This document shows, piece by piece, positions 3,861 to 18,819 of a DNA stretch of 64,000 nt (position 1 is the first letter of the stretch; each line of letters starts with the position of its first letter). The stretch is from Deltaproteobacteria bacterium (GTDB taxonomy: Bacteria > Myxococcota_A > Polyangia > HGW-17), in the NCBI GenBank assembly GCA_016937155.1, contig JAFGWM010000040.1:149267-213266 (forward strand), in the 5' to 3' direction. The notes under the pieces were generated by a model. The model saw nothing but the letters and a program-made list of their open reading frames with translations. It searched no databases and was not told where the DNA came from. A program made the position numbers and the translations under genes.

Positions 3861-4559
3861 ATGCAAAGAGGATTTCTTATCATATCCATACTGATGTTTG
3901 CTGAAACTGGATATGCACAGACAAAAACTTCTGTTACACCAACAGGCTATAATTTACCGGATTCACAGTTTCTTTGTTTGAAAATTCAGACTTACTATAA
4001 CAAAATTAAAACATTTAAATCTGATTTCAAACAGGTTTTTTCAAAAAAATTCCACGGAGATCAGAAACCTGAATATGGAAAAGTGTATATAAAGAAACCG
4101 GGAAAAATGACCTGGGAATATACCAGACCGGAAAAAAAATTGTTTATTGTTGATGGGAAGAAAGTATGGGTATATGAACCTGTGCAAAAGCAGGCTTTAT
4201 GGAAAAATCTTGGTGACAGCGGACTCCCGGCGCCTGTGAAATTCCTTTGGGGGAAAGGAAATCTGATTAATGAGTTTAATGTTAAGATTATAAAAAATTC
4301 CAAATTTGCCGGTAAAAATGAATCTGTTTTAAAGTTACTTCCTAAAAAGAAATCGCCACATTTTAAATCAGTTCTCTTTGTTGTTGATGCATCCGGAGCT
4401 GTTAAACAGAGCATTGTCTATGACAGAGAAGGAAACAGGAATAGAATTTATTTCAACTCAATAATACTTGATAAGCCAATTCCTGATAAATTATTTAAGT
4501 TTATTCCCCCTAAGGGCATTCAGGTACTTGAGGCGGGAGTGGAAAAGAAGAAAAAATAG
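3861..4559 (+). CDS. LolA-like outer-membrane lipoprotein carrier family protein
   Basis: 232 aa; signal peptide; central motif KPGKMTWEYTRPEKKLFIVDGKKVWVYEP resembles the LolA/LppX fold signature. Confidence 0.5.
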   Translation: MQRGFLIISILMFAETGYAQTKTSVTPTGYNLPDSQFLCLKIQTYYNKIKTFKSDFKQVFSKKFHGDQKPEYGKVYIKKPGKMTWEYTRPEKKLFIVDGKKVWVYEPVQKQALWKNLGDSGLPAPVKFLWGKGNLINEFNVKIIKNSKFAGKNESVLKLLPKKKSPHFKSVLFVVDASGAVKQSIVYDREGNRNRIYFNSIILDKPIPDKLFKFIPPKGIQVLEAGVEKKKK

Positions 4560-6566
4560 TATCAGTAAAAGAAAAACTGAAGGCATGTTTTGACTGTTTT
4601 TTCCTGCTGCTGAGCATCCACAACCATTATCCTCTGTTTTTTCATTTTTACAGTCCTCACTGCAGCCGTCTCCGGAGAGGGTGTTTCCGTCATCACAGGT
4701 TTCGTTAATATCGACAATAGAGTTACCACAGACTTCAGTGCTTTTACAGTCTTCACTGCAGCCGTCGCCGGAGAGAGTGTTTCCGTCATCACAGGCTTCG
4801 TTAATATCGATAATAGAGTTACCACAGACTTCAGTGCTTTTACAGTCTTCACTGCAGCCGTCGCCGGAGAGAGTGTTTCCATCATCACAGATTTCGTTAA
4901 TATCGACAATAGAGTTACCACAGACTTCAGTGCTTTTACAATTCTCACTGCAGCCGTCTCCGGACAGGGTGTTTCCATCATCACAGATTTCAAGTCCTTC
5001 AAGAATACCATTTCCACATTCTGAATTTAGACTGGTTAAAGCAGTTTCTATATCTGGAAAAGGCCCTATGTTTTCTGATGTATCACCGGTTTGAGGAATT
5101 CCGGTTGAGATCAGTAAATCCCTTATTGTTAATGCATCAAAGGAAGTTGCAGAAATACAACGCGGAGGATCGAAATATATGTCATCACAGGTTTCTCCAT
5201 TAGTGCATTCTGTTGAAGAACAGTCTGCTCCTGAACCACTTGCCCTCAATATTCCTAATAAAACAGCAATAGTTCCCGTGACAATTGGTGATGCACTGCT
5301 TGTTCCACCAAATTCACTTGTGTAGTATTGATTTACATCACCTCCTCCCGTGAAAAGATCTCCATAACCTGTGGAATACACCTGACTACCCCATGCCTGA
5401 ACGTCCATTCTGGAACCATAATTACTGTACCATTCACGGGATCTTGCCTGAGGATTTGTTCCCGGGAGTCCAGCACCAACCATAATTGCCCCTGAATCCG
5501 AAATTTCTTTATCAAAAGCATTATTGTAAACAGGATCATCCAGATTTTCCCATCCGTTGGCTCCAGCTTCAACTATGATGTAACCATTAGATACAGCTGT
5601 TCGGATTGCATCATATGTTGCTGGAATCCATTCAACCGGAACAAGTCCAGCATAGGTGGAATCATCATAATTTGGACCATATTCCTGAGCTTCCAGAAGA
5701 AATATGGATCCTGTTGGAAAATTTTCCAGAGCATTGGTGATTCCTCTGGCGACGTTGTATCCATATTCATATGTGTAGTCTGGTGAAAAACCACACAGCC
5801 CGTTTGTAGCAGCTCCCGTGATTCCATAACCGTTATGGGACCCAAAAATAATACCAAGAACGGAGGTTCCGTGATCAACAAATGCCTGTTCAGCATATAA
5901 TGTTCCCGCGTCGGGAATAAGAGCATTTATGCAGTTTTCCAGATCCTCGTGATCCTTGTTCCAGTTATATTCAATGTCAACAATTGTAATACCTTCTCCC
6001 CTGGAACCAGGAATATCCCTGACTGATTCGATTCCGGTTCCAATTGGCGACTCACTGAAATACCCCTGAAATTCAGCATAAGAGGGAGTAACAGGAGGAA
6101 TATCCTCAGGGGGGGGTACAGGTATGGTAAGTGGATATGCCACCTCAATAAAGTCCAGTGAATTAATGATTTTTAATAAAGTTGAGAGAGGTTTTTTACT
6201 GTTTCTGAAATCAATTCGATAATATTTTGTAAGATCAGCTAAAGTGCATCTGCAGTTTATTTCTCCAGTTGTTTTAAGTGTTTTTAAAAAACTGTAGTTT
6301 CTGCCAAATGTCGGGCTGGAAGCTGTTGCTCCAAGACTCTCCAGTAAATAAATTTCTTTTCCATTACTGTCTTTTACCACTAACTCCTGAATTGAATAAT
6401 CCAGTTCCTCACTCAATTTTATCTCAATATAACCACTCCAGATATTTTCGCTTATATCAGTAAAGGACAGCCAATTCATTTCTCTTCTGGGGCCTATAGT
6501 TTGAGAAGCCCAGGATGCAGGAACTAAAAAAAACAGTATTAGTGCAGTAGTAAGAAGATTTTTCAT
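4491..6566 (-). CDS. secreted subtilisin-like (S8) serine peptidase with four C-terminal Myxococcus-type Cys-rich repeats and a C-terminal Cys/TM/basic anchor
   Basis: 691 aa; signal peptide; S8 triad contexts (ITIVDIEY Asp, HGTSVLGII His, GGTSSASP Ser); four repeats of CGNSIVDINExCDDGNTLSGDGCSEDCKSTEV; tail GCGCSAAG + hydrophobic helix + RLKYLNALRGNKLK. Confidence 0.85.
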   Translation of the reverse strand: MKNLLTTALILFFLVPASWASQTIGPRREMNWLSFTDISENIWSGYIEIKLSEELDYSIQELVVKDSNGKEIYLLESLGATASSPTFGRNYSFLKTLKTTGEINCRCTLADLTKYYRIDFRNSKKPLSTLLKIINSLDFIEVAYPLTIPVPPPEDIPPVTPSYAEFQGYFSESPIGTGIESVRDIPGSRGEGITIVDIEYNWNKDHEDLENCINALIPDAGTLYAEQAFVDHGTSVLGIIFGSHNGYGITGAATNGLCGFSPDYTYEYGYNVARGITNALENFPTGSIFLLEAQEYGPNYDDSTYAGLVPVEWIPATYDAIRTAVSNGYIIVEAGANGWENLDDPVYNNAFDKEISDSGAIMVGAGLPGTNPQARSREWYSNYGSRMDVQAWGSQVYSTGYGDLFTGGGDVNQYYTSEFGGTSSASPIVTGTIAVLLGILRASGSGADCSSTECTNGETCDDIYFDPPRCISATSFDALTIRDLLISTGIPQTGDTSENIGPFPDIETALTSLNSECGNGILEGLEICDDGNTLSGDGCSENCKSTEVCGNSIVDINEICDDGNTLSGDGCSEDCKSTEVCGNSIIDINEACDDGNTLSGDGCSEDCKSTEVCGNSIVDINETCDDGNTLSGDGCSEDCKNEKTEDNGCGCSAAGKNSQNMPSVFLLLILFFLLFHSRLKYLNALRGNKLK
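4645..5005. repeat. about three near-identical tandem 120-bp DNA repeats (coding, inside the subtilase gene)
   Basis: direct reading: unit ...ttttacagtcttcactgcagccgtcgccggagagagtgtttccgtcatcacaggcttcgttaatatcgataatagagttaccacagacttcagtgc... recurs with only a few substitutions. Confidence 0.85.
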
Positions 6567-6582: not shown

Positions 6583-8145
6583 TTACCCTTTAAACAGATT
6601 CAGAAGATTATCAAATGATTCGGGAGACCAGAAAATTACGTTTGCCCCAGCACTCCTGATTTCTTTTATCAAGCCTTTCCATCTGTAATGGGCTTCTTTT
6701 TCAACGATGCTTCTTTTCAGTGTTTTATCTGTTTCGGGTGAATCATCAAGAATGAGGAAAAATACCTTTAAATTTCTTTTTAGTGCAATCCGCAGTCTTG
6801 GAATAATATCACCCGGTGCTGGAACCGGCTCCAATTCTGAAAAAATTATTATGTGCTGAGAATATTTTTTCAGGGCATCATCAAGGGCTTTTCCAAGACC
6901 GCTCTGATAATTATCTAAAACCGGTGGTTCGTATCCTGTAAGAATACTGATTTTTGTTAAAATTTCCTGAATCGGTTCAGAATGACTTACCAATAATTTC
7001 TCAATACCCCTGGGAGCAGCCAGTGAATTGTAGGCTGCTATCATAGTTTTTTTAAAATTATCCATCTGGTTTGGTGTTGTTGATTCTGGAGGATATATAC
7101 CGGTTCCAAAATTATAATTCAGATATCTCAGTAAATTCAGAATATTCAACTGATCAACATTTTCACAAAGCTCAAGTGTTTTATATCGGTATTCAGCCAG
7201 AGTATAAATCAACTTATTTACTTTTATCCGATTGAGTATGACCTCAATTTCTTTTCTGAAAACAGTAATACCAACCTCGTGTTCCATTTTTTGCAGTTTT
7301 TTTATTATTTGAGGTAGGACCGATACATAGTAATCAAAGGGAGATTCACCAGGTCTGCCTCTGAATACTGAAGGTGTGGTGTCAAAAAGTATCTGCCATT
7401 TTCCTTTTTTTTCCGGATAGGACAGTCTTATAACGGGTTTTTGACGTTTTAATGATGCTGTTCGAACTATAGCCTTTCGAGGATCACCTGTTTGGTAAAG
7501 TCTTAATTCTGCAAGATCTCCGTTATGTGTAGGTTGTGGAAATTTTTCATAAACTGGAATTTTTTCTAGTTTTTTAGTGAATACGGGATCAAGATTCTCT
7601 GGACTCACATTGAGACACATAGGTAAAACCAGATAAAACCTTCGAGGTCTGAAACCAAAAGGAGCAGAAATTATAATACTTAATCCATAAAAGAAAATAT
7701 TTCCGCTTCTGACTGGAACCAAAGTGATATTCATGGAAGTTTTGGAGTTTTTATTTAATTTTATAATGAAAGGATCTCTCTTTCTTATTCCACTGCATGT
7801 TCTTGTTTCAATACGTATTTTTCCAATACTTCTAGGTGTTGAATTTAGAAGATCGATTCTGACAGTAAATTCTTTTCCTGCTGCTATTGAAACCAAAGGA
7901 GGATAAGCCATTCCTTTCAGTGGTGATTTCTTAAAAAGGCTGTTTATTCTGTATTCCACAAGAATTACCCATGACATTATCAGGAAAGGGATTAGACCTA
8001 AAATGAAGAAATCTAACCTTAGGGTGACTGCTCCCAGTATCAAGAGTGCTGTTGGCGCAAGTGTAAAAAGATATGGAGAAGGATAATTGTAATTACTGGC
8101 TTTTACTTTTTCCGGGATCTGGATTATTTCAGAATGTTTGTCCAT
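6583..8145 (-). CDS. DUF58-family membrane protein (MoxR partner)
   Basis: 520 aa; N-terminal TM helices; DUF58-like motif GDLAELRLYQTGDPRKAI...LFDTTPS; immediately downstream of the MoxR ATPase gene on the same strand. Confidence 0.7.
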   Translation of the reverse strand: MDKHSEIIQIPEKVKASNYNYPSPYLFTLAPTALLILGAVTLRLDFFILGLIPFLIMSWVILVEYRINSLFKKSPLKGMAYPPLVSIAAGKEFTVRIDLLNSTPRSIGKIRIETRTCSGIRKRDPFIIKLNKNSKTSMNITLVPVRSGNIFFYGLSIIISAPFGFRPRRFYLVLPMCLNVSPENLDPVFTKKLEKIPVYEKFPQPTHNGDLAELRLYQTGDPRKAIVRTASLKRQKPVIRLSYPEKKGKWQILFDTTPSVFRGRPGESPFDYYVSVLPQIIKKLQKMEHEVGITVFRKEIEVILNRIKVNKLIYTLAEYRYKTLELCENVDQLNILNLLRYLNYNFGTGIYPPESTTPNQMDNFKKTMIAAYNSLAAPRGIEKLLVSHSEPIQEILTKISILTGYEPPVLDNYQSGLGKALDDALKKYSQHIIIFSELEPVPAPGDIIPRLRIALKRNLKVFFLILDDSPETDKTLKRSIVEKEAHYRWKGLIKEIRSAGANVIFWSPESFDNLLNLFKG

Positions 8146-8148
8146 TGT

Positions 8149-9147
8149 TTAAGCCAGAAGATTAAGTTTTTCCAAAGCATTATCTATTATTGAGGAGCTG
8201 GAGATTCCAGCCATTTCAGCCTCGTAAGAGAGTCTCAGTCTGTGGCTTAAGACATATGGTGCAAGGAACTTTACATCATCTGGTGTTCCATAATCCCTCC
8301 CGTACAAGGCGGCAATGGCTTTTGTAGCTCTTATAAGTGCAATACCTGCCCTTGGAGAGGCTCCAAGTTCGGTTTGAGGGTGGCGTCTGGTCCATCTGAT
8401 GATGGAAAGAATATATCTCATTAAAGATTCGCTAATAGTAACATTGTTGATAATATTTTGATATTCTACAATACTTTTACTTTCAAGAAGAGGCTGTGGA
8501 AGGGGTGGTTCAATCTGATGCTTTTTCATCATTTGAAATTCCTGTTCAGTATCCGGATACGAAAGTTTTATTCTGATTATGAATCGGTCAACAGCTGCTT
8601 CAGGAAGTGGAAAGGTACCTGCAAGTTCCTGAGGATTTTGTGTGGCGATAACAAAAAAAGGTTTTTCAAGGGAGAATGTATTGCCTTCTACAGTGACGGT
8701 TTTTTCCTCAAGTGCTTCAAGTAATGCAGCCTGTGTTTTTGCTGGAGAACGGTTAATTTCATCTCCCAGAAGAACCTGAGTAAAAACAGGTCCAGGAATA
8801 AACCGGCTTGATTGAAAATCCGCGCTTGGGACAACAGTTCCTGTAATATCAGTTGGCATGAGATCCGGAGTGAACTGAATTCTCTTGAAAGTACAACCTG
8901 TTAGGGCACTATAGAATTTTGCCAGAGTTGTTTTTGCAACCCCAGGAACACCTTCCAGCAGGATATGTCCCTGAGCAAGCAAAGCTGAACTCATTAAAAC
9001 AGGAATTTCACGAGGACCAAAAAAGTATTTATTAATATTTTCGTGTACCTCGTTGAATATTTCAGAAATTTTAGAAATATCAGTCATGATGAATACTTTA
9101 CTAACATATGATATCGAATTCAATGCAAAACCTTTTATATAGTTCAT
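8149..9147 (-). CDS. MoxR-family AAA+ ATPase
   Basis: Walker A GVPGVAKTT, Walker B region FVIATQNP; MoxR-like C-terminal region; true start may be the internal MTDISKISEIF (about 9087). Confidence 0.85.
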   Translation of the reverse strand: MNYIKGFALNSISYVSKVFIMTDISKISEIFNEVHENINKYFFGPREIPVLMSSALLAQGHILLEGVPGVAKTTLAKFYSALTGCTFKRIQFTPDLMPTDITGTVVPSADFQSSRFIPGPVFTQVLLGDEINRSPAKTQAALLEALEEKTVTVEGNTFSLEKPFFVIATQNPQELAGTFPLPEAAVDRFIIRIKLSYPDTEQEFQMMKKHQIEPPLPQPLLESKSIVEYQNIINNVTISESLMRYILSIIRWTRRHPQTELGASPRAGIALIRATKAIAALYGRDYGTPDDVKFLAPYVLSHRLRLSYEAEMAGISSSSIIDNALEKLNLLA

Positions 9148-14679: not shown

Positions 14680-16404
14680 ATGCGCAGAAAAATACTTATT
14701 GTTTCCTATCTTATTTTAGCTCTTTCAATTCTCGAAGGTTGTTCAGATGATGATTCTGCAAAGGATTCTTATTCCAATAATGTTGCTAATAATGCATACA
14801 ACAACACCGCAAACGGTGGTAATGTTAATGTTGGAGGCGTTCAGGATATTGGAGTTTTCAGGGAAATTATTGAAAGTGGAGGTATTCCTGCACCTTCAAC
14901 ATTTTCTGATAACGGCTTTTTCTCTGAGCATTATATAGAATATCCGTTCAGTGACTGTGGGGAAAATATCTGCCTCAACGGAATGATGGGAAGAGGAAAT
15001 TCGGTTATATCCAATGATTATATGAATGTAATTCAGATTGTTCTTAAGTCTTATCTTGATCCGGCAGATTTTTCACGGCCACCCACAGATTTCATACTTG
15101 TTATCGATGTTTCAGGATCCATGGCAGGTGATAAAATTACGAAGGTAAGAGAAGGTCTTCATCTCATGGTTGATTCTCTTAACTCAGATGACAGAATCTC
15201 TTTGATAGCGTTTTCTGATTTTATTCAGGAAAAACTGGATCTTACGTATGCCGATTCTCTGGAAAACAAAGAGTCAATGCATCTGGCTGTAAGTAATCTT
15301 GTTCCTGGGGGTTCGACTAATATTTACGGTGGATTGAGTGCTGGTTTTGCAAAAGCACAAATCGGTGTTGAACAGGAAAGACATGTAAGAGTTGTACTTC
15401 TTTCTGATGGAGTTCCAACTTCCGGTGAAGTGGATCCTAATGTCATTCAAAGTTTTGCTGAATCAAGAGCTACTGATAATGTTCAACTTACAAGTATAGG
15501 AGTCGGTTCAGATATTAACTATGATCTTATGAAAAATCTGGCTCTCGAAGGCGGAAATTTTTATTATATCGAGAACTATAGTGCCCTCAGTGATATTTTT
15601 GTTACAGAACTTGATTATTTTGCATTTCCTATAGCAAAAGATATTACCATAAGTGTTGTTTCATCCACTGGTATAAAAATAGGAGATTCTGTTGGATTTG
15701 GTGATGCCTGGATTCCCGAAGGTAATGGAGGAAGTGCACAATTCCCCAATCTGTATCTTGCTTCAAGAACAAGTAATGATATTGAAGATCCCTATTCCAG
15801 AAGAGGTGGTGGCAGTGCACTGTTTTTAAGGGTTACCCCAACAGGAGAGACAGTGGATCTTTCTAAGGCATATGTAAAATTGAGATATCTGGACCCGGAT
15901 ATGGATGATTATGTGGATCAACTTTTCACTCTCAGTGATCTGGGAATGGATGGCTCTATTCCAGTTGATGAATATTACAGTGAGTACGAAATGAAAAAGA
16001 GCTTTGCAATGCTGAATGCTTACCTCGCTTTTTATGAGACGGTTGTTTTAGCTGAGAACTGGATGATGGAGGAGAGTTTTGATTTGATAACAGGGGCTAT
16101 TGACTGGATGTACACAGTGAACATCGTTCTAGATGATGATGATATATCAGCAGATATAGTATTGATGGAACAACTTTCAAATAATATATATCCTTACACT
16201 TATAGCGGGGATGACTATTACTGCAACAATGGTGATTGTTATTATCCAGAGACAGATTATGAAAACGACAGAGAAGAAGTTCATTACGGATGTTCCCAGG
16301 GTAATGGAAACAGTTCACACTTCATTTCAATAATGCTTCTGACCCTGAGTTTTGCCTTATATTTCCGCAGAAAATATTCCTTCAAAAAAGTTAAAGATCT
16401 CTAA
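14680..16404 (+). CDS. von Willebrand factor A domain lipoprotein with C-terminal Cys/TM/basic anchor
   Basis: lipobox ILEGCSDD; Asn-rich linker NNVANNAYNNTANGGNVNVGG; vWA MIDAS context DFILVIDVSGSMAGDKI; C-terminus GCSQGNGNSS + hydrophobic helix + RRKYSFKKVKDL. Confidence 0.75.
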   Translation: MRRKILIVSYLILALSILEGCSDDDSAKDSYSNNVANNAYNNTANGGNVNVGGVQDIGVFREIIESGGIPAPSTFSDNGFFSEHYIEYPFSDCGENICLNGMMGRGNSVISNDYMNVIQIVLKSYLDPADFSRPPTDFILVIDVSGSMAGDKITKVREGLHLMVDSLNSDDRISLIAFSDFIQEKLDLTYADSLENKESMHLAVSNLVPGGSTNIYGGLSAGFAKAQIGVEQERHVRVVLLSDGVPTSGEVDPNVIQSFAESRATDNVQLTSIGVGSDINYDLMKNLALEGGNFYYIENYSALSDIFVTELDYFAFPIAKDITISVVSSTGIKIGDSVGFGDAWIPEGNGGSAQFPNLYLASRTSNDIEDPYSRRGGGSALFLRVTPTGETVDLSKAYVKLRYLDPDMDDYVDQLFTLSDLGMDGSIPVDEYYSEYEMKKSFAMLNAYLAFYETVVLAENWMMEESFDLITGAIDWMYTVNIVLDDDDISADIVLMEQLSNNIYPYTYSGDDYYCNNGDCYYPETDYENDREEVHYGCSQGNGNSSHFISIMLLTLSFALYFRRKYSFKKVKDL

Positions 16405-17657
16405 AGGGGAGATTTATTTATACCGGCAGCCCGGCATTCATTACAGATTTCTTCAGGATTTTCCCTTGTACCGAGTTTTATTCGCAGAAGATCTTCGGGT
16501 GACAAAGTAAGCATGAGTTTCGAACACTGGGAACATATGATCTGCTTTCCGCTGCTGTGCTCATGCATGAATTTTTCACAAACCGGACATGGTTTAACAG
16601 GTTCAACATCTGGCAGTGATCCAGTTTTTTTCAGTATCCTTAATTGTGTTTCTCTTTTCCATTTCCATTTTCCGGTACAACCGAACTTTTCATATTTACA
16701 ACTGATTTCTTTATCCTCGAAATCATTCAACTGGTCATAACAACTGTCACAAAGTCTTCGTGGAACACTCTGACCACTTTTTTTTCTGGCGAATATACTT
16801 CCCCGTTTTTCAGTCCAAGTTCCATTGCATTCAGGAATTCTACACTTGTGTGTTAAATCGGACAACTGTGAGTAAAGTTCACTGCACTCCGGACACATTC
16901 TTAGAGGGTATTTTTCTTCACTGTGACTTGTGAAAGAGTATTCCAGTTGTGAAAATCTTGTCCAAACCCAGGTGTTGCTGCACTCTTCGACCCTGCAGTT
17001 TAGTTCTATATCATTTAACTGATTCATTTTTTCACTACAGGAATCACAAAGTTTGCGAGGAGGGTTTTTCCTGCCCTTTTTTATATTTTCCAGTTGTGAA
17101 ATTCTTGTCCATGTCCATGTGTTATCACAACCCTTTATTTTGCATTTCTGGGCTTTATCCTCGAGTGTTTTAAAGGTGGCATAACAATCATTACACATTT
17201 TTTGAGGTGGAGTTGAAGAGTCACTCACCATCTGATCTCTTCCTGTCCAGATCCAGGTGTTTGAACAGCCGCTTATTTTGCAGGGAATATGTTGTGCTTC
17301 GATGGATTTTGAACTATCCATACAGGCTTGGCAGAGCCTTTTGGGAATTGACTTCCTTTTATTTATCTTATCAGCAACCTGTGCAATTCGGTTATATCTC
17401 CATGTGTTTGGACAATCGGAATTTGAACAGGGTTCTTCTCGATCCTGAAAATTCTGAAATAATTCAAAACAACGGTCACACATTTTAAGAGGAGGATCGC
17501 GATGTCCTTCACTCATTGCTTTGAGTTGATCCTCACCTGTCCATATCCAGGTATTATTGCATCCGCTTATTCTACAAGGAACTTTTTTATCCTTAAGTCC
17601 CTGCATCAGAGACCCAACATTTTTCATGACCAACTCTCCTTTATCCAGTTCTGACAT
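16401..17657 (-). CDS. cytoplasmic tandem zinc-ribbon repeat protein (7 repeats of C-x4-C-x-N-T-W-x-W ... C-x2-C)
   Basis: 418 aa, no signal peptide; repeated modules CRISGCNNTWIWT...CDRC, CSNSDCPNTWRY...CQAC, CKISGCSNTWIWT...CNDC, CKIKGCDNTWTWT...CDSC, CRVEECSNTWVWT...CPEC, CRIPECNGTWTEK...CDSC, CTGKWKWK...CPVC; no family I can name. Confidence 0.7.
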   Translation of the reverse strand: MSELDKGELVMKNVGSLMQGLKDKKVPCRISGCNNTWIWTGEDQLKAMSEGHRDPPLKMCDRCFELFQNFQDREEPCSNSDCPNTWRYNRIAQVADKINKRKSIPKRLCQACMDSSKSIEAQHIPCKISGCSNTWIWTGRDQMVSDSSTPPQKMCNDCYATFKTLEDKAQKCKIKGCDNTWTWTRISQLENIKKGRKNPPRKLCDSCSEKMNQLNDIELNCRVEECSNTWVWTRFSQLEYSFTSHSEEKYPLRMCPECSELYSQLSDLTHKCRIPECNGTWTEKRGSIFARKKSGQSVPRRLCDSCYDQLNDFEDKEISCKYEKFGCTGKWKWKRETQLRILKKTGSLPDVEPVKPCPVCEKFMHEHSSGKQIICSQCSKLMLTLSPEDLLRIKLGTRENPEEICNECRAAGINKSPL

Positions 17658-17745: not shown

Positions 17746-18819
17746 TCAGTACCCAATAAACCAGAGGGTGTATCCGAAAAGGAGAGCGGTAAACAGATTT
17801 ATCAATTTTACCATTATGAAATCTTTTCTTGAGTGTGCCAGAAGAGGAATGGCTCCATGACCATCCTGAGAAATGGATGAAGCAAGAAGAATACTGAAAG
17901 GAATCATTCCATTTGCAAACATTGTCACAAAAATCAGATGTGGCCCGGATTCGGGAATCAATCCTATTAATGCTGCCACCAGCATAATAAGAGCCGGATT
18001 GCCGGTTATCGTGGAATCAAGTCTATTGTGTAGAAGAATACTGATTACAACAAATGCTCCAAACGTCCAGAGAAAGATTTTTGGTGCGTGTTTTAAAATA
18101 AGATGTTCCCACAGGTGTTCTCTGATAAAATGTTCTTCGGCCATGGAAATTATAACGAAGGCCAGAGCAGGAACTACTGTGAAAATAGTACTTTGTATGC
18201 TCGGCGTCTCAGCAATGGATTTCCAGAGAAAATAAGATGATATAGCTGCGAGAGATGCCAGAATTATTAACAAGCGGATGTCTCCTGATTTTAAATTTGG
18301 AATAATTCTGGAGATTTTAAATTTTTTTTCCACAGTAGTCTGATGAATTTCAAAGTTATCTTCACACGGACAATCAGAAAATCTGTTTCCCATTACAAGG
18401 TCAGTGACAACGCCTGTGATGATACCAATAAGAAATAAAATGCCAGTGAGTAAAACTGCTTTTTCAGGAAACATTGCGAACATTACAAATGCTTCATCTC
18501 CGCTTGTGGCAATTGTTGCAGCAACAACCGCGCCCACTTTAAATATTTTATGTGAGTAGAGAGAAACAACTGCGAAAGTACCAAAGCATCCCGGAGTTGC
18601 ACCAAGTAGCGAACCGATAATGTGCTGTCCGAGGAGATATCTTTTAAGGGATGTCTGCCATTTTCCCATGGATGCCACATTAAGAAAATCAATAAAAAGC
18701 ATCATGGAAAGTACAAAAATACTAATTGCAAGTGCATGTACGAAAGAGTGTATAAAAGGATGAATCAAATTGTGAGACAAAAAACCCCCTTTCCGGGATT
18801 TTAGGTAATACCGATTCAT
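17746..18819 (-). CDS. polytopic integral membrane protein, internally duplicated transporter-like fold, unknown substrate
   Basis: 357 aa, about 10 predicted TM helices; paired motifs GATPGCFG...TSGDEAF and LIPESGPH...SQDGHG plus a DCPCED loop. Confidence 0.5.
   Translation of the reverse strand: MNRYYLKSRKGGFLSHNLIHPFIHSFVHALAISIFVLSMMLFIDFLNVASMGKWQTSLKRYLLGQHIIGSLLGATPGCFGTFAVVSLYSHKIFKVGAVVAATIATSGDEAFVMFAMFPEKAVLLTGILFLIGIITGVVTDLVMGNRFSDCPCEDNFEIHQTTVEKKFKISRIIPNLKSGDIRLLIILASLAAISSYFLWKSIAETPSIQSTIFTVVPALAFVIISMAEEHFIREHLWEHLILKHAPKIFLWTFGAFVVISILLHNRLDSTITGNPALIMLVAALIGLIPESGPHLIFVTMFANGMIPFSILLASSISQDGHGAIPLLAHSRKDFIMVKLINLFTALLFGYTLWFIGY

Follow-up and report, generated by a model that had tools for sequence, protein, structure and literature searches.

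Gene content of the locus

The window analysed here is a stretch of 64,000 nt from a Deltaproteobacteria bacterium (NCBI GenBank assembly GCA_016937155.1, contig JAFGWM010000040.1, positions 149,267 to 213,266 of the forward strand), and the element in question is a minus-strand gene for a protein built of tandem Cys4 modules (the array protein), which lies downstream of, and in the same direction as, a gene assigned below to the ArsP_2 permease family. The open reading frame (ORF) of the array gene is uninterrupted over 418 aa, as described in a first-pass annotation of the window, and its real start is probably M11 (giving 408 aa), since an AAGGAG motif lies upstream of this codon, the NCBI gene model is 408 aa long and the N-termini of homologues, which begin MKN.G, line up with M11. 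The identical 408-aa protein in NCBI (P0001) is a 'hypothetical protein' from a Deltaproteobacteria metagenome-assembled genome (MAG). No hydrophobic stretch was found at the N-terminus of the array protein, in agreement with the earlier description of a cytoplasmic array of Cys4 metal-binding modules without a signal peptide, and we regard the protein as cytoplasmic.

The array protein contains 12 Trp and 32 Cys, the latter at regular spacing (5, 27, 3, 14, 5, 27, 3, 14 ...), and as apo-protein has an isoelectric point (pI) of 8.3–9.0 and a net charge of +12. All 32 Cys are invariant across eight homologues of 31–60% identity, in which the repeats align position for position and which span two phyla, and the gene is thus real and conserved. 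The seven repeats that precede the C-terminal module score 25–74 bits each against a family repeat profile (which includes the window's own repeats), far beyond chance, and pairwise identity among them at the DNA level is only 46–61%, indicating that the duplications are old. Promoter and terminator scans of the locus were uninformative.

Module architecture and predicted fold

The seven repeats are 46–55 residues long and follow the pattern C-x4-C (C-x6-C in repeat 7), 24–30 residues, C-x2-C, with 14-residue linkers between repeats. The first-pass annotation had described seven tandem repeats of ~50 residues with 28 Cys; the seven repeats stand, but an eighth module (CSQC-x26-CNEC, residues 372–418), C-terminal to them, had been missed, and the true count is 32 Cys in eight modules. 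The G-C-x-N-T-W-x-W signature that had been called invariant is complete in only three of the seven repeats (1, 3 and 4): Gly is replaced by Asp or Glu in repeats 2, 5 and 6, Asn by Gly in repeats 6 and 7, and the second Trp is missing from repeats 2 and 6, the invariant positions being the four Cys and the first Trp only. Module 1 of five homologues (P0013, P0014, P0017, P0018 and P0019) has His in place of one ligand Cys (MC-x-E-H), a swap that a metal ligand would tolerate and which fits a metal-ligand role.

Upstream of module 1, a motif with the family-wide form G-S-L-x-[DE]-x-[LF]-x-D-[KR]-E-V-P-C is retained even behind long N-terminal extensions. Its Leu (−11), hydrophobic residue (−7), Asp (−5), Glu (−3) and Pro (−1) have the same spacing as the end of helix 2 and the linker before each repeat, which suggests that the motif is a cap, a vestigial copy of the inter-module segment, and that each module leans on the tail preceding it. 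As the cap reproduces the inter-module linker, the modules may interlock into one body.

AlphaFold2 prediction of a single repeat (from an alignment of 58 repeats) gave a predicted local distance difference test (pLDDT) score of 94.5, and that of the full-length array (with nine homologues) a pLDDT of 85.8 and a predicted template modelling (pTM) score of 0.49. The predicted topology of every module is a strand, a knuckle, a second strand, a helix, a loop and a CxxC at the start of a second helix. This predicted topology is treble-clef-like and not that of a classical zinc ribbon, the class to which the modules had first been assigned, and the predicted secondary structure is compatible with a one-zinc treble-clef fold.

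Relationship to PF13451 and other families

The first-pass annotation could place the protein in no family and had proposed a profile hidden Markov model search, which yielded a single borderline hit. FYVE (PF01363) is the sole curated model to reach its threshold (28.1 against 27.8 bits, residues 252–311), and the match was rejected as an artefact of Cys spacing, as it straddles two modules and lacks the WxxD, R(R/K)HHCR and RVC motifs; it recurs in just one of 50 relatives scanned. Profile–profile comparison did supply a family: hhalign, run with an alignment of 40 genuine PF13451 proteins collected for this purpose, related module 8 to PF13451 (97.1%, E 5.5e-11), repeats 1–7 to module 8 (94.9%, E 4.5e-8) and repeats 1–7 to PF13451 (80.9%, E 1.2e-5). 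PF13451 is the Pfam family zf_Tbcl ('Probable treble clef domain'), whose members usually carry the annotation 'zinc-ribbon domain-containing protein'. The matched features are GC..TWtWt with DCGkEFvFT, QL with EQEF, a conserved Gly, and PPxRMCxxC with EPKRCxxC. As judged from these alignments, the array modules are derived relatives of PF13451.

Direct searches with the Pfam model fall short of its gathering threshold of 24 bits. Module 8 of relatives scores 11.7–22.6 bits, with nearly the whole model covered in the matches of 17–22.6 bits, and repeat 4 of one fused homologue (P0005) scores 17.1 bits; the window protein has no PF13451 match in Pfam at E ≤ 1, its own module 8 included. Stand-alone PF13451 proteins are mostly 50–60 residues long, and on this ground one module was taken to run from knuckle 1 to knuckle 2, the register that had been assumed from the outset. 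The alternative register, with CxxC-x13-Cx4C as one site, was rejected because the stand-alone proteins span exactly knuckle 1 to knuckle 2 and the array starts with Cx4C and ends with CxxC.

No solved structure was found in a PDB sequence search with the PF13451 profile, and a literature search on PF13451 (zf-trcl, zf_Tbcl) and on treble-clef arrays in Myxococcota returned nothing relevant; a preprint on a Borrelia zinc-ribbon RNA chaperone was set aside, as it concerns a different domain. No description of a fixed eight-module array or of the C-x4-C knuckle variant was found in the literature searched. Among loci of canonical PF13451 genes (L036–L044), one gene lies directly upstream of an IspH-S1 fusion gene (five contigs) and a second, unrelated small PF13451 gene lies between the genes for TyrRS and ribosomal proteins L13/S9, which hints, if only faintly, at a link between the parent family and translation or RNA.

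The window protein has no NCBIfam match at E ≤ 1, and the MJ0042 CXXC finger (TIGR02098; Pfam zinc_ribbon_4/5), from which it had been distinguished in the first-pass annotation, gave no match at E ≤ 1 in Pfam or NCBIfam. PDB sequence searches with the protein and the repeat profile gave no significant match, the similarities being superficial Cys patterns of the C2H2 or E6-like kind (profile matches to KLF/GLI fingers at E 0.07–0.16), and Foldseek against the PDB likewise found nothing significant, the best matches being DNA-bound C2H2 arrays (E 0.03–0.5, probability <0.1). A classical C2H2 finger was rejected, the helix after the knuckle having no conserved His. One relative has a marginal Metallothi_Euk2 match (E 5e-4); the array protein is not a metallothionein, as such proteins are characterised by CxC/CC clusters, few aromatics and little secondary structure, none of which the array presents. 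PADLOC, a set of models of known anti-phage defence systems, returned no match for the array protein, the ArsP_2 permease or the VWA-domain neighbour, and the array protein is not regarded as a defence protein.

Pairing with an ArsP_2 permease

The product of the gene upstream of the array gene is clearly assigned, on profile matches, to the ArsP_2/arsenic_eff permeases, with 124.5 bits against PF11449 (cut-off 32.5; profile positions 15–358 of 359) and 135.5 bits against NF037962 (cut-off 100). The ArsP family (TCDB 2.A.119) has internally duplicated 4+4 transmembrane segments, includes an organoarsenical exporter of Campylobacter jejuni, is related to the NiCoT metal transporters and has a characterised member only in its PF03773 branch (PMC7176098). 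The co-directional, internally duplicated membrane protein of the first-pass annotation is thereby accounted for.

ArsP_2 directly precedes the array gene in the window and ten further loci (L001, L005, L006, L009–L013, L023 and L086). These 11 loci, whose flanks vary, are all those in which the array reaches 43% identity with the window protein. On the permease side, we examined 80 metagenomic ArsP_2 loci (L045–L124; 40–49% identity), of which 61 extend at least 600 bp downstream; among these 61, an array is present at one and a PF13451-like ORF beside ArsP_2 at none. A general requirement of ArsP_2 for a PF13451-type partner was therefore rejected, with one array and no PF13451-like ORF at the 80 related loci. 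Since ArsP_2 is absent from the other array loci and the array from 60 of the 61 ArsP_2 loci, the pair is a real but lineage-specific module; the two-gene module first proposed holds within this lineage and not beyond it. No terminator-like site was seen on the minus strand between the two genes in the window.

The array-paired permeases share invariant polar residues (PGC, GDE.F, HF...H...H.I, P.SGPHL and QDGH), including one invariant Cys and one invariant His in the central loop, which suggests a metal or metalloid substrate. To our knowledge, no substrate has been established for any PF11449 permease, nor is any of these permeases known to depend on a Cys-rich soluble protein. Away from Myxococcota, the neighbours of the metagenomic ArsP_2 genes often include OYE/pyridine-nucleotide-disulphide oxidoreductase fusions, flavin reductases, S-adenosylmethionine (SAM) methyltransferases, radical-SAM enzymes, MBL hydrolases, cupins, Nitro_FeMo-Co proteins and MFS transporters, a gene neighbourhood suggestive of detoxification or redox chemistry.

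Distribution, fusions and other gene contexts

A search of 1.84 billion representative proteins with the single-repeat profile returned 166 clusters at E ≤ 1e-3, of which 83 were below 1e-30, and the array family is thus rare. Nearly all full-length members have seven repeats and the eighth module in orthologous order. Across species-representative genomes the family occupies 27 loci in two groups, Myxococcota (Polyangia, Haliangiales and Kofleriaceae) and Lentisphaerota/Victivallales, the latter with Oligosphaera ethanolica DSM 24202 as a cultured member and with one additional MAG that bears the label Verrucomicrobia. Bare arrays are about 400–450 aa long with 32 Cys, and high-GC Myxococcota members carry low-complexity K/R-rich inserts such as KKKRRNRKKKRRK within a module loop.

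Arrays with a C-terminal SGNH/GDSL-like domain measure 630–740 aa, and PF13472 was detected in 18 of the 50 proteins scanned. In the Lentisphaerota proteins (P0005–P0009 and ~18 relatives), this domain occupies the C-terminal ~270 residues; GDD, GDE or GDC replaces the catalytic GDS in most, and the block-V Asp-x-x-His is missing, so that the domain may be a pseudo-enzyme or perform a different chemistry. One metagenomic protein of 1769 aa (P0112) has five N-terminal Cx4C modules followed by TPR repeats and a DEAD/ResIII and Helicase_C SF2 helicase; its PADLOC scores are faint and Cas3-like only.

Fourteen Lentisphaerota loci share an operon of the array-SGNH-like gene, an OmpA-like gene and a NUDIX gene (L007 (10019–11052), L002, L016, L019, L021, L022, L025, L027, L030 and L032–L035 among them), with gaps down to 6 bp and a 4-bp overlap between the OmpA-like and NUDIX genes. 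The NUDIX protein (MutT/NUDIX_4; PF00293 and PF14815) scores 26.7 bits against a Nudt16-like decapping model with a threshold of 27. Among the Myxococcota, L006, L008 and L023 also have a NUDIX gene, convergent and directly downstream of the array; in L125 the distance is 2.7 kb. In L008 and L125 the array is next to the tig-clpP-clpX cluster, and in the window it is 2 kb from clpX; this proximity points to an old, vertically inherited chromosomal position.

The remaining neighbours in the window are listed with the features of the array gene in Table 1. The type II secretion system (T2SS) operon encodes GspC (NF041515 GspC_delta), a GspD secretin, GspE, GspF, an N_methyl pseudopilin and further ORFs, and a T2SS lies beside the pair in four of ten ArsP_2-linked loci examined (the window, L001, L009 and L013); at this frequency it is treated as local synteny only. 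The VWA gene is kept downstream of the array only in L009. The C-terminus of its product (..YGCSQGNGNSS-HFISIMLLTLSFALYF-RRK..) resembles what we take to be a MYXO-CTERM Cys sorting signal, with no NCBIfam match at E ≤ 1.

Table 1. Features of the array gene and its neighbourhood in the window (module residues numbered on the 418-aa frame; bit scores of modules 1–7 against the family repeat profile)
Feature	Position	Strand	Remarks
S8 subtilase with four Cys-rich DUF4215 repeats	4491..6566	-	Beside the 520-aa ORF
520-aa ORF	6583..8145	-	No Pfam match; adjoined by the MoxR-type gene
MoxR-type AAA+ ATPase	8149..9147	-	
VWA-domain lipoprotein-like gene, 574 aa	14680..16404	+	Convergent; stop overlaps array stop by 4 bp
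Array gene	16401..17627	-	408 aa from M11 (probable start); longest ORF reaches 17657 (418 aa)
Module 8, residues 372-418	16404..16544	-	C375, C378 / C405, C408; CxxC..CxxC form; 44.2 bits (module-8 profile)
Module 7, residues 317-371	16545..16709	-	C320, C327 (C-x6-C) / C357, C360; 24.6 bits
Module 6, residues 269-316	16710..16853	-	C272, C277 / C303, C306; 57.4 bits; without second Trp
Module 5, residues 218-268	16854..17006	-	C221, C226 / C255, C258; 61.7 bits
Module 4, residues 169-217	17007..17153	-	C172, C177 / C204, C207; 72.5 bits; most canonical repeat
Module 3, residues 123-168	17154..17291	-	C126, C131 / C155, C158; 60.9 bits
Module 2, residues 74-122	17292..17438	-	C77, C82 / C109, C112; 54.1 bits
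Module 1, residues 25-73	17439..17585	-	C28, C33 / C60, C63; 73.9 bits
N-terminal cap motif (putative) MKNVGSLMQGLKDK, then KVPC	17586..17627	-	Conserved in ~57 family members
Shine-Dalgarno-like AAGGAG	17636..17641	-	8 nt upstream of M11 ATG; read from the sequence
ArsP_2 permease gene	17746..18819	-	PF11449 and NF037962; co-directional, upstream of array gene
Type II secretion operon, complete-looking	19152..~33100	+	Divergent from ArsP_2/array pair

Proposed function

We propose, with a probability of roughly 0.45 and hence tentatively, that the array protein is a structural-zinc binding platform (an adaptor) which works with the ArsP_2 permease in the window genome. This reading is based on the conserved array of eight Cys4 sites, the homology to PF13451, the fixed number and order of modules and the effectors that vary between lineages, the identity of the metal as zinc, the interlocking of the modules and the adaptor role being predicted. 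The protein would consist of eight consecutive Cys4 zinc modules of ~49 residues each, in a derived PF13451 form. Each module would comprise a strand, a Cys knuckle (C-x4-C in modules 1–7, C-x2-C in module 8), the T-W-x-W strand, a helix (x-Q-L) and a loop ending in P-P-x-R-M, followed by the C-x2-C that opens the second helix, and the end of this helix and the D-x-E-x-P linker would run directly into the next module. The modules would then interlock as one defined rod or solenoid and not as beads on a string, the zinc would be structural, and the array would bind a macromolecular ligand, either protein or nucleic acid. The putative effector would be supplied in trans by the upstream ArsP_2 permease in the window genome and its Myxococcota relatives, in cis by the C-terminal SGNH-like domain, within the OmpA-like/NUDIX operon, in Lentisphaerota, and by the TPR-helicase in P0112.

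Several observations weigh against this proposal. No Lentisphaerota locus shows the ArsP_2 pairing, nor do the Myxococcota loci outside the clade, 60 of the 61 ArsP_2 loci with sufficient downstream DNA are without an array, and the gap between the two genes (about 90–270 nt) makes their co-transcription only presumptive. The global pTM of the full-length prediction is only 0.49, and 'adaptor' is the default reading of a fixed multi-finger array, for which the permease is a candidate partner only.

The array might instead be a nucleic-acid reader, an eight-finger rod lying along RNA or DNA as a bacterial analogue of eukaryotic poly-zinc-finger proteins and acting with NUDIX or helicase enzymes. 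A NUDIX gene adjoins the array in both phyla, five repeats are joined to an SF2 helicase in P0112, loop inserts in high-GC Myxococcota members are K/R-rich, the pI of the apo-protein is basic (8.3–9.0), canonical PF13451 proteins have basic tails and, in the two cases examined, are encoded near S1-domain, L13/S9 and TyrRS genes, and the top, insignificant Foldseek matches are DNA-bound C2H2 arrays. This support is all circumstantial. Eight Zn(Cys)4 centres, at about −2 each, would cancel the net charge of +12, the window locus has no NUDIX or helicase gene nearby, the Foldseek probabilities are below 0.1, and the Trp residues, which alternate with Thr on the strand, may simply form the core of a small domain. 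We consider this reading somewhat unlikely.

A role as metal or metalloid partner of the permease, in which the 32 thiolates reversibly bind Zn, Cd or trivalent arsenicals as a high-capacity buffer, sensor or chaperone feeding or fed by ArsP_2, would explain why the array follows ArsP_2 in 11 loci, even at array identities as low as 43% and although the flanks have changed. It would also suit an ArsP family that includes the C. jejuni organoarsenical exporter and has NiCoT relatives (PMC7176098), the many invariant His, Asp, Glu and Cys residues of the partner permeases (including the central-loop Cys and His), and the location of other ArsP_2 genes among methyltransferase, radical-SAM, flavin-reductase and MBL genes, a detoxification-like context. 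The reading has to contend with the arrays of Lentisphaerota and other Myxococcota, the majority of the family, which lack a permease, and with the 60 ArsP_2 loci that have neither an array nor a PF13451-like ORF. The modules, moreover, have the character of normal structural fingers, with conserved cores of hydrophobic and aromatic residues, high pLDDT and homology to stand-alone PF13451 proteins, and have neither the CxC/CC clusters nor the aromatic-poor composition of metallothioneins, and we judge such a partner role unlikely. Of the three roles offered in the first-pass annotation (scaffold, metal or redox buffer, nucleic-acid binder), the buffer is the least consistent with a well-folded (pLDDT 86–94), aromatic-rich protein homologous to stand-alone single-domain proteins.

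In a bolder reading, the array would be a poly-zinc-finger solenoid of bacterial type in which eight non-equivalent modules together recognise one long ligand (a specific nucleic acid, or a membrane protein at its cytoplasmic side), and which in the Myxococcota clade would act as a soluble gating or sensing subunit making ArsP_2 responsive to zinc or thiophilic metalloids via its Cys4 sites. We regard this as decidedly unlikely; if true, it would represent a new protein class and a new mode of regulation for a transporter of the TOG superfamily. An iron-based electron-transfer array, with Fe held rubredoxin-like at the Cys4 sites as a chain of redox centres, is hardly credible: the C..C-x~27-CxxC spacing and the aromatics superficially recall rubredoxin and one orthologous module has sub-threshold matches to RUBY_RBDX (13.9 bits) and zf-ChsH2 (12.9 bits), but the window protein has no rubredoxin family match at E ≤ 1, neither the C-x4-C first knuckle nor the Cys-to-His swap resembles rubredoxin, and redox partners are absent from every array locus.

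If the array is no more than an ordinary structural scaffold, the value of these results lies mainly in better annotation and a new family model. The array is conserved module for module across two phyla, which is unusual for bacteria, and through it the orphan domain PF13451 gains a multi-domain relative with informative contexts (permease, SGNH-like fusion, NUDIX and helicase), while a candidate for a soluble partner is now at hand for the ArsP transporters of the PF11449 branch. The cultured carrier O. ethanolica DSM 24202 opens the way to experiments.

Comparison with known systems

Long zinc-finger arrays of fixed order typify eukaryotic regulators, and bacterial examples are scarcely known. 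The array protein resembles eukaryotic C2H2 arrays (ZFP568, CTCF, TFIIIA and KLF) in having many small strand-strand-helix zinc modules in series, and KLF/GLI-type fingers in having a C-x4-C knuckle followed by an aromatic strand and a helix. It differs from them in that its helix lacks the conserved His ligands, the second ligand pair being a downstream CxxC on an extra helix, and in its period of ~49 residues as against 28. FYVE domains also contain treble-clef elements. Metallothioneins differ from the array protein, whose Cys occur only in regularly spaced pairs with no CxC/CC clusters and which is aromatic-rich and predicted to consist of helices and strands (pLDDT 86–94). On the transporter side, the ArsP of C. 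jejuni belongs to the PF03773 branch, whereas the window permease belongs to the PF11449 branch.

The closest likeness is to PF13451, with which the array shares a module of ~48 residues, two Cys pairs 25–27 residues apart, an aromatic-x-aromatic strand after the first knuckle, an (E)Q helix, a conserved Gly and a Pro two to three residues ahead of the second Cys pair. The CxxC..CxxC pattern of PF13451 is present in module 8 (CxxC-x26-CxxC), and modules 1–7 have a variant first pair. Where canonical members have C-x2-C-G, F-x-F, EQEFY and EPKRC, modules 1–7 have C-x4-C, T-W-x-W, Q-L and P-P-x-R-M, and whereas canonical members are single-domain proteins of 50–90 aa, the array comprises eight modules fused in a fixed order.

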